Part shown: positions 14,617-24,363 of the stretch, in pieces
How the letters are laid out: each line of letters begins with the position of its first letter
How positions within the stretch are numbered: the first letter of the stretch is position 1
Virus record (IMG/VR): IMGVR_UViG_3300032324_000938
Coordinates: 1 to 64,000 of that record
From: a virus
Taxonomy: Duplodnaviria; Caudoviricetes
Length of the DNA stretch: 64,000 bases
Strand: one strand, 5' to 3'
Position numbers and translations under genes: made by a program
Notes under the pieces: model-generated
What the model was told of the DNA's origin: nothing
Database searches by the model: none
The model's input: the letters and a program-made list of their open reading frames with translations, nothing else

Positions 14617-15474
14617 CTATATACCAAAATCATTTACATATGGATATGACCGTTTCAATTCTTCCATAACTTTTTCACTGGTACCATGTTCTTTTAGAAG
14701 TTTATTTACAAATGGTGTATTTCTAATATTTAGATAATTACTACACCTGATGTCTGTAGGAATTGATTCAATTGTACTGTTTATTAATATCAAATTATCA
14801 ATTTCACAGTTATTACCAATTGATTTTAAATGCTTACAATTAGATGCTTTTAGATACTTTATTTTGACATTATCTGGTATGCGTTCAACTGGTGTATCAA
14901 TTATATTAAGAGTACCGCAGGTAAATTTAGCTGGTAATATTCTGAATTTAACCGCAGATAATAAATTAATAGTTTCTATATAATGTTTAAACAATGGCAA
15001 TTCAGTTATATATGCTGCACTATCAAGATTGAGTCTATCACATTCAATATCATCTGGTATAACTCTTATACCACTTGAAGCCGCCTCAACTATTTTAACT
15101 TTTAATCCTTTTGGCAATTGATGTAGTTTATAACATCCAACAACACTTAAGATATCATAATGTCCTATAGTTAGATTATCTGGTAGTTTTGTTACATTTG
15201 AATTATTTAACAGTAAGTTACTTGGTGTATGTTTTAATTTATCTGGTACAACAAAATCTCCATTATATTGCAATGTACCATATTCATATCCATTATCATC
15301 TATATCTTTTGGTGATAATGTCAATGACATATTGTAACGCTTAACAATAAAATCATCAACAATAGCATTTACTTCTTTTTGTGTGATATTATTGTATTTA
15401 GTTTGACGGTCTTCAATTCTTCTGGGAATAAAGATATCATCATTTTCTAATAGTAAATCTTTTAGTTTAATCAT
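14617..15474 (-). CDS. LRR protein, type A, MIKLKDLLLE head
   Basis: LP-x-x-L repeats; paralogue of 16482-17375. Confidence 0.85.
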   Translation of the reverse strand: MIKLKDLLLENDDIFIPRRIEDRQTKYNNITQKEVNAIVDDFIVKRYNMSLTLSPKDIDDNGYEYGTLQYNGDFVVPDKLKHTPSNLLLNNSNVTKLPDNLTIGHYDILSVVGCYKLHQLPKGLKVKIVEAASSGIRVIPDDIECDRLNLDSAAYITELPLFKHYIETINLLSAVKFRILPAKFTCGTLNIIDTPVERIPDNVKIKYLKASNCKHLKSIGNNCEIDNLILINSTIESIPTDIRCSNYLNIRNTPFVNKLLKEHGTSEKVMEELKRSYPYVNDFGI

Positions 15475-16001
15475 ACCCCCACCATTCCTTTTACATCAGA
15501 TACTGATCTAACTTGTTTTTCTGTAAATTTAACTGGATTTCGATAACAAAAAAAATGTCCGTTAACAGTCTTAGGCGCACCTTCTAATGATGTTAATTTA
15601 TTATCAGTACAATAAAAATTTTCATTAATCACGGTTTCCTTCAATCCTTTTAGTGATGTTAAGTTATTATAATGACAATAAAAAGTTCCATCAACATACT
15701 TAGGCGCATTAATTAATGATGTTAACTTATTGTCACTACAATCAAAAGTTCCATCAACAGTTTTAGGACAATTTTCTAATGATGTTAAATTATTATTAAA
15801 ACAAAAAAAATTACCGCCAACAGTTATATCTTTTAATATCTCAGGTAACACAGTTAATTTCAAGTCACTTAAATTTAAGCTACCTTTATTACCATTACGA
15901 ATATAGTTTTTAATCATACGCTCAATTCTATCCTCTATTCTTCTTGGAATGAAAATACTTGGCGGCTTACCTTCTAATAGTAAATCTTTTAATTTAATCA
16001 T
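15471..16001 (-). CDS. 21-aa-repeat LRR protein, MIKLKDLLLE head
   Basis: LTSLxxxPKxVxGxFxCxxN repeats. Confidence 0.85.
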   Translation of the reverse strand: MIKLKDLLLEGKPPSIFIPRRIEDRIERMIKNYIRNGNKGSLNLSDLKLTVLPEILKDITVGGNFFCFNNNLTSLENCPKTVDGTFDCSDNKLTSLINAPKYVDGTFYCHYNNLTSLKGLKETVINENFYCTDNKLTSLEGAPKTVNGHFFCYRNPVKFTEKQVRSVSDVKGMVGV

Positions 16002-16477
16002 AAAAAGTCCATCCAACGATAAATTTTTATTTTTCCACGAATATCACAAATAGACCTAAAGAAATCTACTGTAAATTCCTTTGGAAATTTACGAGTGCCA
16101 CCAAGGTAATGTCCTACTTCTAAATCTCCACCAATTTTTTTAGGAAAATATGTAAAATCAACCAATTTATGATTGGATGAAATTTGCAAATTGCCATGTA
16201 TTATCTTTGGTATTCCTTGTAATGATATTAATTCTTTACAACCTGATACACCATAATTCTTACCAACAATTTCAGGTCCACCAACAAGATTTTTAAGTTT
16301 TTCATTGTAACTAAAATACACACTTTCACCAATTATTCTTGGACAATTCTTTAATGATGATATACGGTTGTCACTTACACTGAAATATCCATCAATTTTA
16401 TCAACTGTAGATAAAATCTCAGGCAATTCTTTCAAATGCAAACGGTCTAAATCAAGATTTCCTTCTATTATTTTCAT
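15998..16477 (-). CDS. LRR protein lacking the MIKL head
   Basis: Same repeat type; starts MKIIEG. Confidence 0.8.
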   Translation of the reverse strand: MKIIEGNLDLDRLHLKELPEILSTVDKIDGYFSVSDNRISSLKNCPRIIGESVYFSYNEKLKNLVGGPEIVGKNYGVSGCKELISLQGIPKIIHGNLQISSNHKLVDFTYFPKKIGGDLEVGHYLGGTRKFPKEFTVDFFRSICDIRGKIKIYRWMDFL

Positions 16478-16481
16478 TTGT

Positions 16482-22012: not shown

Positions 22013-22536
22013 ACATATATTTTTCCTTTAACATCACAAACCGCTCTTACTTGTGCGTCAGTGAATTGTACATTATTATTACGACAATAAAAATCTCTAC
22101 CAACACTTTTAGGCGCACCAGTTAGTGATGTTAAGTTATTATAACTACAACCAAAATCTCTACCAACACTTTTAGGCGCACCAGTTAGTGATGTTAAGTT
22201 ATTATAACTACAATAAAAACTACTACCAACATATTCAGTCGCACCATCTAATGATGTTAATTTATTATGTCCACAATAAAAACTACCACCAACAGTTTTA
22301 GGACAATTTTCTAATAATGTTAAATTATTATTACCACAAAAAAAATCTCTATCAACACTTATATCCTTTAGTATTTCAGGTAACACAGTTAAATTCAAGT
22401 CACTTAAATCTAAATCACCTTTACTTCCATTTTTTACATAAAGCATAATTAACCGCTCAACTCTATCTTCCAACCTTCTTGGTACAAAGATATCAGGCGC
22501 TTTATTTTCTAATAATATGTCTTTAAGTTTAATCAT
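22009..22536 (-). CDS. 21-aa-repeat LRR protein, MIKLKDILLE head
   Basis: Contains a near-exact internal 63-bp duplication. Confidence 0.85.
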   Translation of the reverse strand: MIKLKDILLENKAPDIFVPRRLEDRVERLIMLYVKNGSKGDLDLSDLNLTVLPEILKDISVDRDFFCGNNNLTLLENCPKTVGGSFYCGHNKLTSLDGATEYVGSSFYCSYNNLTSLTGAPKSVGRDFGCSYNNLTSLTGAPKSVGRDFYCRNNNVQFTDAQVRAVCDVKGKIYV

Positions 22537-22934
22537 ACATACACATCTCCTTTTACATCACACACTGCTCTTATATCTTTTTCTGTAAATTTACCTGGAT
22601 TAAATCTACACATAAAATCTTCACCAACAAACTTAGGCGCACCTTCCAATGATATTAATTTATTACTACTACAACCAAAAACTCCATTAACAGTTTTAGG
22701 ACAATTTTCTAATGTTGTTAAATGATTATTACCACAAAAAAAATCTCCATCAACAGTTATATCTTTTAACATTTCAGGCAACACAGTTAAATTTAAACCT
22801 TGTAAACTTAACTTGCCTTTACTACCATTACGAATATAAGTCTTAATCATCCGTTCAACTCTACCTTCAATTCTTCTAGGAATAAATATAGTTGACGGCT
22901 TACCTTCTAACAATAAATCTTTAAGCTTAATCAT
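22533..22934 (-). CDS. 21-aa-repeat LRR protein, MIKLKDLLLE head
   Basis: Repeat consensus. Confidence 0.85.
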   Translation of the reverse strand: MIKLKDLLLEGKPSTIFIPRRIEGRVERMIKTYIRNGSKGKLSLQGLNLTVLPEMLKDITVDGDFFCGNNHLTTLENCPKTVNGVFGCSSNKLISLEGAPKFVGEDFMCRFNPGKFTEKDIRAVCDVKGDVYV

Positions 22935-23707
22935 AAAAATATATTTGCCCAAACATTACATACAGCTCTTACTTGTTGTTCTGTAAATTTAACTGGATTA
23001 TCACTACACCAAAATTCATAAGCATCATTAGGAGCACCTTCTAGTGATGTTAATAGATTATCATTACAAGCAAAATATCCAGGAATAGTACGAGGAACAC
23101 CTTCTAGTGATGTTAATTTATTAGAACCACAATAAAAACCATCACCAACAGTCTTAGGCGCACCTTTTAGTGATGTTAATTGATTTTTAGTACAACTAAA
23201 ACTTTTACCAACCTTCTTAGGCGCACCTTCCAATGAAGTTAACTTATTGTTATTACAACCAAAAGTTCCTCTAACACTCTCAGGCGCACCTTTTAATGAT
23301 GTTAAATAATTATGACTGCAACCAAAATTTCCACCAACACTACTAGGCGTAAATTCCAGTGATGTTAATTTATTGTCACTACAAATAAAACCATCACCAA
23401 CACTACTAGGCGCACCTTTTAATGAAGTTAATCTATTTTCACTACAATAAAAAGTTCCAGTAACAATCTTAGGACTGTTTTCTAATGTAGTTAAATTATT
23501 ACTACTACAATCAAAAAATCCGTTCACAGTTATATCCTTTAATATAGCGGGTAATACAGTCAAATTTTTATTTTGTAAATTTAAACCGCCTTTGCTGCCA
23601 TTTCTTATATAAACACTAATCATCCGCTCAAGTCTGTCATCCATTCTCCTTGGAACAAAGATATCTGGTGCGGTATTCTCTAATAGTATTTGTTTAAGCT
23701 TAATCAT
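22931..23707 (-). CDS. 21-aa-repeat LRR protein, MIKLKQILLE head (longest of the block)
   Basis: About 7 tandem repeats. Confidence 0.85.
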   Translation of the reverse strand: MIKLKQILLENTAPDIFVPRRMDDRLERMISVYIRNGSKGGLNLQNKNLTVLPAILKDITVNGFFDCSSNNLTTLENSPKIVTGTFYCSENRLTSLKGAPSSVGDGFICSDNKLTSLEFTPSSVGGNFGCSHNYLTSLKGAPESVRGTFGCNNNKLTSLEGAPKKVGKSFSCTKNQLTSLKGAPKTVGDGFYCGSNKLTSLEGVPRTIPGYFACNDNLLTSLEGAPNDAYEFWCSDNPVKFTEQQVRAVCNVWANIFL

Positions 23708-24363
23708 ACAAATATTCTTCCTTTTACATCACACACTGCTCTAACTTGAGCTTCAGTGAATTGTACACTATTATCACCACAAGTAAAAGCACCACCTACA
23801 GTTTTAGGAGCACCATCCAATGATGTTAATAGATTATTACTACAAACAAAATTACCACCTACATATGTAGGAGCACCTTTTAAACTAATTAATTGATTAT
23901 AACCACAGTAAAAACTTTCACCAACACTCTTAGGTGAATTATTCAGTGATGTTAACTTATTATTAGCACAACTAAAAAATTTTTCAATATCTATATCTTT
24001 TAACATAGATGGTAATTCAGTTAACAAATTACCACTACAAAGAAAATTACCACTTACATATGCAGGAATACCAGTTAATGATGTCAATTTATTATTATCA
24101 CAGTAAAAACTTTTACCAACATATTTAGGTAAATTATTTAATGATGTTAACTTATTATTACTACAAGCAAAACTTCCACCAACATCTATATCCTTTAATA
24201 TCTCAGGTAACACAGTTAAATTCAAGCCACTTAAACTTAAGTTACCTTTGTTACCATTACGAATATAGTTTTTAATCATCCGCTCAACTCTATCCTCAAG
24301 CCTTCTTGGAACAAAAATAGTTGGCGGCTTACCTTCTAATAATATGTCTTTTAACTTAATCAT
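23704..24363 (-). CDS. 21-aa-repeat LRR protein, MIKLKDILLE head
   Basis: Repeat consensus; internal duplication of the LPxxLKDI segment. Confidence 0.85.
   Translation of the reverse strand: MIKLKDILLEGKPPTIFVPRRLEDRVERMIKNYIRNGNKGNLSLSGLNLTVLPEILKDIDVGGSFACSNNKLTSLNNLPKYVGKSFYCDNNKLTSLTGIPAYVSGNFLCSGNLLTELPSMLKDIDIEKFFSCANNKLTSLNNSPKSVGESFYCGYNQLISLKGAPTYVGGNFVCSNNLLTSLDGAPKTVGGAFTCGDNSVQFTEAQVRAVCDVKGRIFV

Follow-up and report, generated by a model that had tools for sequence, protein, structure and literature searches.

Organisation of the locus

The window, by which we mean the whole 64,000-nucleotide stretch analysed here, represents a fragment of a giant lake phage related to T4. At 14617–24363 it holds twelve minus-strand ORFs that encode LRR-type proteins (Table 1), and ten of these start with the decapeptide MIKLK[DQ][IL]LxE, which we call the tag, followed by xxxIF[IV]PR[RK]xE[DG]R. 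The two without it lie at 15998–16489 and 18669–19361, and in all of this the original prediction, which had been made from the letters of the sequence, proved accurate. It had also described a tandem array of genes coupled by ATGA overlaps; such overlaps do occur at seven junctions, with an 8-nt overlap at two more, but three non-LRR genes sit inside the array, and the place of one of them, the HNH-like gene, varies from strain to strain. The operon opens with a tagged protein that is not an LRR protein and carries a weak Tpt1/KptA-like motif (PF01885, E=0.014, under the cut-off); a 99% identical copy of its gene sits ahead of the array in a metagenome locus (L188).

Table 1. Features of the array and of the tagged genes around it
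Position	Strand	Feature	Details
24789–24796	-	TATTTATA element	7 nt upstream of the start codon of the operon's first gene
24356–24781	-	tagged non-LRR protein, operon's first gene	141 aa, starts VIKLKDILNE, acidic (pI 4.3)
23704–24363	-	tagged LRR protein	219 aa, 7 repeats, C-cap
22931–23707	-	tagged LRR protein	258 aa, 9 repeats, C-cap; 63-bp period, 7.8 copies
22533–22934	-	tagged LRR protein	133 aa from MIKLKD start at 22934, 3 repeats, C-cap
22009–22536	-	tagged LRR protein	175 aa, 5 repeats, C-cap
21548–22012	-	tagged LRR protein	154 aa, 4 repeats, C-cap, acidic (pI 4.5); variable cassette
20991–21551	-	tagged LRR protein	186 aa, 5 repeats, C-cap and short basic tail
20210–20947	-	GP88-family gene, non-LRR, interrupts array	PF17338 E=7e-37; phrog_1392
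19387–20142	-	HNH-like endonuclease gene, interrupts array	phrog_28061 on C-terminus
19371–19378		TATTTATA element	belongs to the untagged LRR gene 18669–19361
18669–19361	-	untagged LRR protein	230 aa, 6–7 repeats, C-cap
17892–18644	-	conserved non-LRR gene, interrupts array	243–250 aa; 95% identity in G001, dN/dS 0.12
17372–17887	-	tagged LRR protein	171 aa from MIKLKD start at 17887, degenerate repeats, C-cap
16482–17375	-	tagged divergent LRR-like protein	297 aa; usual tag and linker, other repeat class, no canonical cap
15998–16489	-	untagged short LRR-like protein	163 aa; Recep_L_domain E=3e-6; A1 profile E=1e-22
15471–16001	-	tagged LRR protein	176 aa from start at 16001, 5 repeats, C-cap
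14617–15474	-	tagged divergent LRR-like protein, array's last gene	285 aa
37801–38280	+	tagged non-LRR protein, outside array	159 aa, starts MIKLKELLNE, basic (pI 9.8); TATTTATA 3 nt upstream

Repeats and fold

Nine of the twelve genes carry a 21-residue unit, LTSLxGAPKxVGGxFxCxxNx, in 3–9 copies when counted by FxCxxN-like motifs, a little above the 2–7 that had been estimated, and nine likewise carry the expected FTExQVRAVCDVKG C-cap; three members of divergent LRR-like classes (14617–15474, 16482–17375 and 15998–16489) have neither the canonical repeat nor the cap. At the DNA level, Tandem Repeats Finder detects 63-bp periods in six array genes (2.6–7.8 copies, 71–81% matches) as well as whole-gene periods of 398 and 461 bp. 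In the wider LRR family, protein lengths rise in 21-residue steps (133, 154, 175, 196, 217–219, 238 and 258), and the array proteins end about 20 residues past the last repeat, with no further domain beyond the C-cap. Across 76 local and 460 metagenomic units the repeat positions F15, C17, N20, L1 and L4 are 89–100% conserved, a figure that is partly biased because the extraction regex fixed those same positions.

The array proteins with the canonical repeat are LRR solenoids, as had been predicted, and fall in the 21-residue, Internalin-J-like cysteine-ladder class. Their repeats show the core pattern LxxLxCxxNxLxxL with its Cys and Asn ladders, and the A1 family profile has Internalin-J (3bz5) as its top PDB profile match (E=1.7e-17) and also matches SspH1 (E=3e-13), whereas Pfam LRR models match under their cut-offs only. 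The AF2 model of the 23704–24363 protein is a confident solenoid (pLDDT 89.6, pTM 0.81) with residues 1–19 disordered and outside the fold, and Foldseek matches it best to the LRR domains of IpaH9.8, IpaH7.8, SspH1 and YopM (E 1.8e-5 to 1e-3, TM 0.55–0.67); every significant match is an LRR domain. For the divergent 14617–15474 protein the model (pLDDT 87.8) has a disordered tag, a helix at 18–45 and then a beta solenoid, and its Foldseek matches are weak (best E=8e-3), nearly all of those listed (the top 50 or so) being LRR proteins. On the divergent 16482–17375 protein the A1 profile match is limited to residues 1–46.

Variation and turnover

Entropy within the repeat peaks at positions 14, 16, 18, 19 and 21 (2.8–3.3 bits) and falls below 0.7 bits at positions 1, 4, 8, 11, 15, 17 and 20. 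The variation had been placed around F-x-C-x-x-N, which holds for the five peaks, but positions 5, 9 and 10 are variable too. The variable residues fall at the canonical exposed positions beside the beta strand, on the predicted binding face. The exposed positions have a dN/dS of 0.97 against 0.35 at scaffold positions, so that they evolve about three times faster, although diversifying selection is not proven by a value of about 1 that does not exceed it; the genes flanking the LRR family stand at 0.12–0.16. Machinery for somatic or DGR-type diversification was searched for on the window's own contig and on a complete relative (G001), and none was found: neither has an RVT_1 match to indicate a reverse transcriptase, and we have rejected the idea that these genes are targets of a diversity-generating retroelement.

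The array differs in gene content between six close relatives, with cassettes gained and lost between conserved anchor genes; the 22009–22536 gene, for example, is missing from the relatives G001, L185 and L184. G001 is a syntenic 296-kb relative (CheckV 100% complete, and called near-complete), mostly 85–92% identical to the window's array in nucleotides and 70–75% in the most diverged stretches, and it carries nine tagged LRR genes, six tagged unrelated genes and a second cluster of four more LRR paralogues that are untagged. A metagenome survey gathered 76 loci with 220 LRR genes, 202 of them tagged.

The original reading is thus partly supported: the LRR fold, the exposed variation and the turnover of the array all stand, an anti-defence or host-takeover role for the binders is a candidate function, and the tag as a separate module had been missed. 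Nothing that we found contradicts it outright, be it variable sites that are buried or under purifying selection, arrays identical across strains or a role as external structural decorations, and this last point is now ambiguous, for the proteins may be internal virion cargo instead.

A portable N-terminal tag

The tag heads twelve ORFs of the contig, ten of them LRR genes and two not (24356–24781 and 37801–38280), and between the two kinds similarity stops exactly at E10. The first ten residues are a separate portable module that is common to unrelated cargo proteins. A scan of IMG/VR recovered 87 tagged ORFs, all with the tag at the ORF start and with unrelated bodies behind it (mean column identity 8%), and in other phage contigs the tag heads dozens of unrelated families, among them lysozymes, M23 peptidase, Zeta-toxin-like kinases, NUDIX, RNase_T and MPTase-PolyVal by Pfam, along with ATP-grasp and NT5C (nucleotidase) enzymes. 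Two phages in culture, Flavobacterium phage immuto and Microcystis phage Mel-JY01, bear tagged genes as well. An unbiased set is provided by the 71 ORFs that begin with MI[KR]L and were not picked by the search pattern; 53 of them have a hydrophobic residue 8 together with E10, against a background frequency of E10 of 15 in 302. Selection acts on the tag peptide and not on the mRNA, since its dN/dS is 0.05 but its dS, at 0.33, is on a level with the rest of these genes. Our literature search found no publication that mentions the tag or describes tagged LRR arrays.

The closest precedent is the capsid-targeting sequence of T4, MKTYQEFIAE (PMC8442874), in which residues 4 and 7 drive targeting and residues 8 and 10 drive processing, the T4 protease gp21 cleaving after L/I-X-E (PMC9026906). 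The window's tag has L at 4, I or L at 7, L at 8 and E at 10, and so matches the T4 architecture. Neither tag nor cargo shows sequence homology to T4 IPI, IPII or IPIII, the tags having only M1, E10 and the residue pattern in common, and ten residues are too short for homology between the tags to be established.

Head genes and an upstream element

The window's contig, 24% complete, holds no head genes, so that a gp21-type protease is inferred from relatives. G001 has T4-type head genes, namely Portal_T4, Peptidase_S77 (the gp21-type protease, E=8e-27) and Gp23 (E=7e-71), and its capsid protein reads LLNE|A near the position aligned with the T4 maturation site. Its head module also includes small genes with tag-like N-termini, MIKLTEIAEA at 140784–141224 and MINLTDIVDE at 136194–136805. 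S77 occurs in 15 of 25 tag-bearing records (G001 and the window's contig counted among them), most of which are fragments of 20–70% completeness; one complete 207-kb tag-bearing contig has no S77 match.

An oriented TATTTATA element lies 3–30 nt ahead of the start codons of tagged operons, and in G001 it also precedes the portal, tail-fibre, baseplate, tape-measure and adaptor genes. At so short a distance from the start codon, it may signal translation initiation rather than act as a late promoter.

What might these proteins do?

We think that the locus is best explained as a tandem family of small LRR binders that recombines, each member being built of five parts: tag, disordered linker (the conserved IFVPRRxEDR), N-cap helix, 3–9 repeats and a constant C-cap. 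Whether these binders are loaded into the head, clipped and injected is a question on which we would put the chances at about even. The tag would act like the capsid-targeting sequence of T4 internal proteins and dock the LRR protein onto the scaffolding core of the prohead; a gp21-type prohead protease would cut the tag off after Glu10; and the clipped protein would remain with the DNA inside the head until infection carried it into the host, where its variable face may bind host proteins, most plausibly defence proteins, before phage gene expression. By analogy with T4, then, varied LRR cargo probably enters the host with the DNA. Behind this stand the fold, a modular tag of T4 pattern, the T4-type head genes of relatives, the element common to structural genes, the pattern of variation and the turnover of cassettes, from which we infer loading, cleavage, ejection and targets. 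It is the portable tag that makes binders loaded into the virion and injected likelier than cytoplasmic ones.

Not everything points to the head, of course. The LRR proteins might be late-expressed cytoplasmic binders that are never packaged, with the decapeptide acting as a degron, making translation start efficiently, stabilising the N-terminus or docking to a phage chaperone, and we regard this as rather unlikely, with several observations in its favour. Untagged paralogues lie next to tagged ones, and since they exist (two here, four more in G001) the LRR family also functions untagged; enzymes that look metabolic, such as NUDIX, NT5C and ATP-grasp, bear the tag, and these are not obviously virion cargo, which counts against head loading; and internal [LI]xE sites are not clearly depleted in tagged bodies (observed/expected about 1.0, as against 1.2 in untagged proteins, some 2 SD). 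In addition, the tag places A/T-rich lysine codons directly after the ATG, of the kind that favours expression. The fixed peptide with its free synonymous sites says instead that the signal lies in the peptide, not in the mRNA, and an invariant E10 with a hydrophobic residue 8 is unneeded for translation and is exactly the gp21 cleavage pattern; that the tag is found in phages with S77 proteases, and that tagged operons have their upstream element in common with structural genes, weighs on the same side.

Loading does not by itself imply injection, and all the tag evidence for it counts equally for proteins that act inside the particle, as accessory core or scaffold, DNA-condensing proteins or fillers. 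Most mature LRR forms are mildly basic (pI 8.4–9.0), like the basic T4 internal proteins, and the tag-like N-termini within the G001 head module fit as well; but some array members are strongly acidic, LRR domains bind proteins in all the closest structures, and neither the fast evolution confined to exposed LRR positions nor the cassette turnover between near-identical phages would be explained, so that we consider a purely internal role quite improbable. It seems to us highly improbable that the proteins are external adhesins or decorations, in which the conserved N-terminal 25 residues would anchor swappable LRR receptor-binding modules to tail or capsid and so widen the host range. Phage receptor-binding proteins are indeed usually conserved at the N-terminus and variable in the binding part at the C-terminal end, the top sequence match, Internalin-J, is a surface adhesin, and tail genes have the same upstream element. 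Yet lysozymes, kinases, nucleases and many unrelated small proteins bear the tag and cannot all be adhesins, the LRR proteins are small monomer-like solenoids without a trimerisation or anchor domain, their N-terminus is predicted to be disordered, and the phage already has conventional large fibre genes.

Comparison with known systems

Injected, head-loaded binders would have their closest counterpart in the T4 internal proteins, whose N-terminal tag is likewise ten residues long, with L/I at position 8, E at 10 and hydrophobic residues at 4 and 7; there too the tag is the only feature common to otherwise unrelated, fast-evolving proteins, and the locus is polymorphic between close relatives (PMC3012670, PMC9026906). 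To go with it, T4-type genes for portal, S77 protease and gp23 capsid are present in the window's lineage. The differences are that the tag reads MIKLKDILLE here, not MKTYQEFIAE, that the cargo is a multigene LRR family with ten tagged copies and not three small basic proteins, that many aquatic phages carry the tag, on dozens of cargo families, and that loading, cleavage and ejection are here predicted from the genes.

Internalin-J of Listeria has the same 21-residue period and the same Cys in place of the second core Leu (xCxxNxLTxL), but it is a large bacterial adhesin, secreted and anchored to the cell wall, that has a signal peptide and further domains, whereas the phage proteins are 133–258 aa long, have no signal peptide and bring their own N- and C-caps. 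The type III effectors IpaH, SspH1, SlrP and YopM, whose LRR domains are the top structural matches, also have short bacterial-type LRRs, which there recognise the target of a protein injected into another cell, and they too come as multi-paralogue repertoires. The array proteins have no C-terminal NEL E3-ligase or other catalytic domain, and we have rejected the NEL-type ligase effector class for them; their delivery, if any, would be via head and tail, not a secretion system, and their target would be a bacterium. The original prediction had loosely compared the array with variable LRR receptor repertoires. With these, the variable lymphocyte receptors of jawless vertebrates among them, it has in common a constant cap-repeat-cap scaffold, module numbers that vary and variable residues on the concave face. 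Diversity here is germline and not somatically assembled, and the analogy therefore holds for a library of germline paralogues, varied by cassette exchange between genomes.

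What does the array encode?

Sixteen genes occupy the minus strand between 14617 and 24781, and twelve of them are LRR-type, which is the count given in the original prediction, where the locus was read as a variable repertoire of LRR binders for anti-defence or host takeover. Ten begin with the decapeptide MIKLK[DQ][IL]LxE (the tag), followed by a conserved xxxIF[IV]PR[RK]xE[DG]R, and nine carry three to nine copies of the 21-residue unit LTSLxGAPKxVGGxFxCxxNx plus a terminal FTExQVRAVCDVKG cap; the untagged and divergent members, and the three genes that interrupt the array, are listed in the table. 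Tandem Repeats Finder returned 63-bp periods in six array genes and periods of 398 and 461 bp that correspond to whole genes, and seven gene junctions are ATGA overlaps. The window makes up the first 64 kb of one viral contig of 75,398 bp (32.6% G+C; 24% complete by CheckV), which also encodes a tail-fibre gene, thymidylate synthase and homing endonucleases.

Both neighbours of the array deserve mention. Upstream lies a second tandem family of five or six paralogues (119-186 aa), with common motifs such as KYP[IV][TV]N..W.Y and V..V.G..V.C.DV and zero Pfam matches, and this family is partly replaced in G001, a syntenic relative from IMG/VR (295,831 bp, 100% complete by CheckV). Downstream are a calcineurin-like metallophosphoesterase (PF00149, E=4e-15) and a family-1 glycosyltransferase (PF13528, E=1e-29), both 90-94% conserved in G001.

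Pfam and PHROGs returned only sub-threshold LRR matches and function-unassigned PHROG families for the LRR genes. From an alignment of 45 homologues, AlphaFold2 models the 219-aa member (pLDDT 89.6, pTM 0.81) with residues 1-19 disordered, a helix at 22-35 and then a regular solenoid, for which the top Foldseek matches in the PDB are the LRR domains of IpaH9.8, IpaH7.8, SspH1, IpaH1.4 and YopM (E 1.8e-5 to 2e-3, TM up to 0.67). The family profile matches Listeria Internalin-J (3bz5), whose LRR is of the 21-residue cysteine-ladder type, at E=1.7e-17, and next SspH1 and IpaH proteins. A divergent member of 285 aa is also predicted by AlphaFold2 to be a confident beta solenoid (pLDDT 87.8), its listed Foldseek matches (about the top 50) being almost exclusively LRR proteins, every one weak.

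Coordinates of features in the window, in the relative G001 and in cultured phages
Feature	Source	Position	Strand	Remarks
LRR genes without tag	window	15998-16489; 18669-19361	minus	
Divergent LRR-like classes	window	14617-15474; 16482-17375; 15998-16489	minus	
Variable cassettes	window	22009-22536; 21548-22012		175 aa; 154 aa
GP88-family gene	window			interrupts array; PF17338, E=7e-37
HNH-like gene	window	19387-20142	minus	interrupts array
Conserved gene	window			interrupts array; function unassigned
HNH-like paralogues	G001	206384-207229; 211964-212671		
Tagged non-LRR gene	window	24356-24781	minus	141 aa; weak Tpt1-like motif; [YW]H.T motif
Tagged non-LRR gene	window	37801-38280		159 aa; basic
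Tagged, [YW]H.T motif	G001	269473-269814; 269811-270350		
Tagged, [YW]H.T motif	Mel-JY01	60276-62718		
TATTTATA elements	window	24789-24796; 19371-19378; 37790-37797		
Second tandem paralogue family	window	24803-27552	minus	adjoins array upstream
Metallophosphoesterase and glycosyltransferase	window	12848-14565	minus	adjoin array downstream
Second LRR cluster and tagged genes	G001	264230-267165; 268623-270850		
Head-module genes, tag-like starts	G001	140784-141224; 136194-136805		MIKLTEIAEA, MINLTDIVDE
Untagged repeat protein	PP083315.1	3330-3965		212 aa

Where does the variation lie, and how might it arise?

Among repeat units extracted from the window's phage and its relative (n=76) and from metagenomic homologues (n=460), variability is highest at positions 14, 16, 18, 19 and 21 (2.8-3.3 bits), the x's of xFxCxxNx; positions 5, 9 and 10 vary too, and positions 1, 4, 8, 11, 15, 17 and 20 are almost invariant. 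Strand assignments in the 219-aa model cover F15-x16, so that in the canonical LRR register positions 14, 16 and 18 would be the outward residues of the concave sheet, exposure being read from DSSP strand positions and that register rather than from computed accessibility. Nei-Gojobori estimates between the window's contig and G001 give a dN/dS of 0.97 at exposed repeat positions, 0.35 at scaffold positions and 0.12-0.16 in two non-LRR genes flanking or interrupting the array; the exposed sites are thus relaxed or diversifying, and no value above 1 was found for them in this comparison.

Whole cassettes also come and go. G001 is syntenic with the window's contig and 85-92% identical across most of the array. 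A comparison of six close relatives shows that the 219-, 258-, 133- and 186-aa genes are retained as anchors and that the cassettes between them, of 154-196 aa, are gained and lost. The same conserved cap-plus-tag sequence recurs at each gene boundary and would be an obvious substrate for unequal recombination. The location of the HNH gene varies among the close relatives: HNH-like endonuclease paralogues, 55-69% identical, occupy different sites within or beside the array strain by strain, and they may aid cassette turnover. Diversification of the DGR type was rejected, since a search of the window's contig and of G001 gave no reverse transcriptase.

The family is very large in metagenomes. 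There are 4,649 metagenomic matches at E<=1e-3, with lengths in 21-residue steps, and 76 loci, mostly freshwater (317 kb), hold 220 LRR genes, of which 202 have the tag; as many as nine are packed into 11.7 kb. A search of cellular genomes from 185,579 species gave just two MAG contigs with the family, a near-absence that provides neither a host clue nor a cellular origin. Against GenBank phages, megablast of the array gave zero matches and tblastn only repeat-level relatives, all without the tag. One of these, a 212-aa protein of the cultured Vibrio phage VB_VaC_TDDLMA, has eight near-identical 21-residue repeats (52% identity), lacks MIKLKD and differs from the array proteins at its ends, so the repeat family is wider than the tag. 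Elsewhere in G001, some four LRR genes lacking the tag form a second cluster, and four tagged genes of non-LRR type come immediately after it; this region is not seen in the window's own 75-kb contig.

Is the tag a portable module?

The tag is not confined to LRR proteins: two non-LRR genes in the window carry it, six non-LRR proteins of G001 start with the decapeptide, and similarity between tagged non-LRR and LRR proteins ends precisely at E10. Scanning IMG/VR with a DNA pattern found at least 119 stretches, and in the loci examined all 87 peptide matches sit at an ORF start, on bodies that are unrelated (8% mean column identity) and include lysozymes, an M23 peptidase, a cell-wall hydrolase, Zeta-toxin-like kinases, an MPTase-PolyVal domain and NUDIX, RNase_T, ATP-grasp and NT5C enzymes. 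This set was chosen by our own pattern, and to avoid circularity we took MI[KR]L-initial ORFs that do not match it: 53 of 71 combine E10 with a hydrophobic residue 8, compared with E10 in 15 of 302 other ORFs. Between orthologues, dN/dS in the tag is 0.05 at a dS of 0.33, which indicates selection on the peptide, not the RNA.

Two further motifs follow the tag. In all tagged LRR genes residues 11-25, (G/N)xxPxIF[VI]PRRxE[DG]R, are predicted to be disordered and are almost invariant across some 200 members, and the divergent 285/297-aa class retains them as well. A short [YW]H.T...(I/L)...G(L/I) motif recurs in several tagged proteins of non-LRR type; it resembles folds of the Tpt1/KptA or ADP-ribosyltransferase kind (PF01885, at E=0.014 only) and brings to mind T4 Alt, a packaged ADP-ribosyltransferase.

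A second signal lies upstream. The T4 late-promoter word is TATAAATA; its reverse, TATTTATA, occurs as an oriented element 3-30 nt 5' of the first codon of both structural genes and tagged operons, the latter starting at 24781, 19361 and 37801 in the window and at 207253, 211190, 212693, 268623 and 153108 in G001. In G001 this holds for 59 of 125 sites, whereas TATAAATA, the opposite orientation on the coding strand, accounts for 14 of 125; a T4 late promoter was rejected on this basis, the T4 consensus itself being inapplicable. All nameable genes after TATTTATA in G001 are structural (portal, tape measure, baseplate wedge, tail fibre, head-tail adaptor), and in the window's contig it was not seen upstream of the helicase, thymidylate synthase or the glycosyltransferase at 6017-7186. 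Because it is so near the ATG it may be either a promoter or a translation signal, and as a promoter it would yield nearly leaderless transcripts. A sigma-70 and terminator scan was uninformative (99 sites, 90 expected).

Could the proteins travel in the phage head?

In T4 the capsid-targeting sequence, MKTYQEFIAE, makes up residues 1-10 of the internal proteins (PMC8442874); its residues 4 and 7 serve targeting and 8 and 10 processing, and the gp21 protease cuts after L/I-X-E (PMC9026906). The array tag has L4, I/L7, L8 and E10. G001 keeps its head genes in a single module in T4 order, namely Portal_T4 (E=4e-69), Peptidase_S77 of the gp21 type (142906-143523; E=8e-27) and Gp23 (E=7e-71), and its capsid protein contains ILLE51 and LLNE60|ATATGTS; T66-S67 aligns with T19-S20 of mature T4 gp23, which places an L-x-E|A site near the homologous maturation point. 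Two small genes of this module have tag-like starts, and their products may correspond to gp67 and gp68, core proteins of T4. G001 also encodes a scaffold protein (138614-139675). By capsid protein the nearest cultured phages are Flavobacterium phage immuto (53%), Microcystis phage Mel-JY01 (50%) and Rhodothermus phage RM378 (38%), with one tagged ORF in immuto (immuto35A_41, beginning MIKLIDLLTE) and several in Mel-JY01, among them WWT39342 (MIKLKSLLQE) and WWT39345 (MIKLMSLVTE). Flavobacterium and other freshwater Bacteroidota are candidate hosts.

The best-supported mechanism, to which we would give an even chance, is that binder proteins would be loaded in the head, clipped by the protease and delivered alongside the DNA. 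The S77 protease was found in 15 of 25 tag-bearing records, most of which are fragments 20-70% complete. This reading has its weak points, namely that S77 was not detected in one complete tag-bearing contig, that the window's own contig lacks head genes, that untagged LRR paralogues exist and that depletion of internal [LI]xE sites in tagged proteins was marginal and not decisive (observed/expected about 1.0 in tagged and 1.2 in untagged proteins). Binders that act late in the cytoplasm, with a tag of different function, are an unlikely alternative. It is rather improbable that the proteins are packaged for an internal, non-effector role, and highly improbable that they are external adhesins.

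Why might this matter?

Going beyond head loading and delivery of the LRR binders, we suggest, tentatively and with somewhat less than even confidence, that a large aquatic T4-related clade packs dozens of effector families through one capsid-loading tag, MIKLKDLLxE, and injects them with its DNA, the LRR binder library being the most expanded cargo, hypervariable, cassette-shuffled and directed against bacterial defence or housekeeping proteins. T4's capsid-targeting sequence and polymorphic internal-protein locus are already known, and we found no paper on this tag or on LRR cargo arrays. If the tag is a loading signal, the proteins injected by lake and marine T4-related phages could be listed from sequence by one simple rule; these phages form a large, mostly uncultured group, and their injected proteins are otherwise invisible to annotation. 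Candidate first-minute effectors would then number in the hundreds, dominated by LRR binder libraries, and would offer a route to new anti-defence proteins and the bacterial targets that they bind. If transferable to other proteins, the tag would also be useful for phage-borne protein delivery. Should the tag not serve loading, it would still have to be explained why strong selection at the peptide level acts on this decapeptide in dozens of unrelated phage proteins. The capsid-targeting principle is known in T4 from three small E. coli phage proteins, and head loading here would extend it, with a different tag sequence, to a general delivery system. Type III secretion pathogens possess multi-paralogue repertoires of LRR effectors, and on the clade-wide reading the phage LRR array would be their counterpart.
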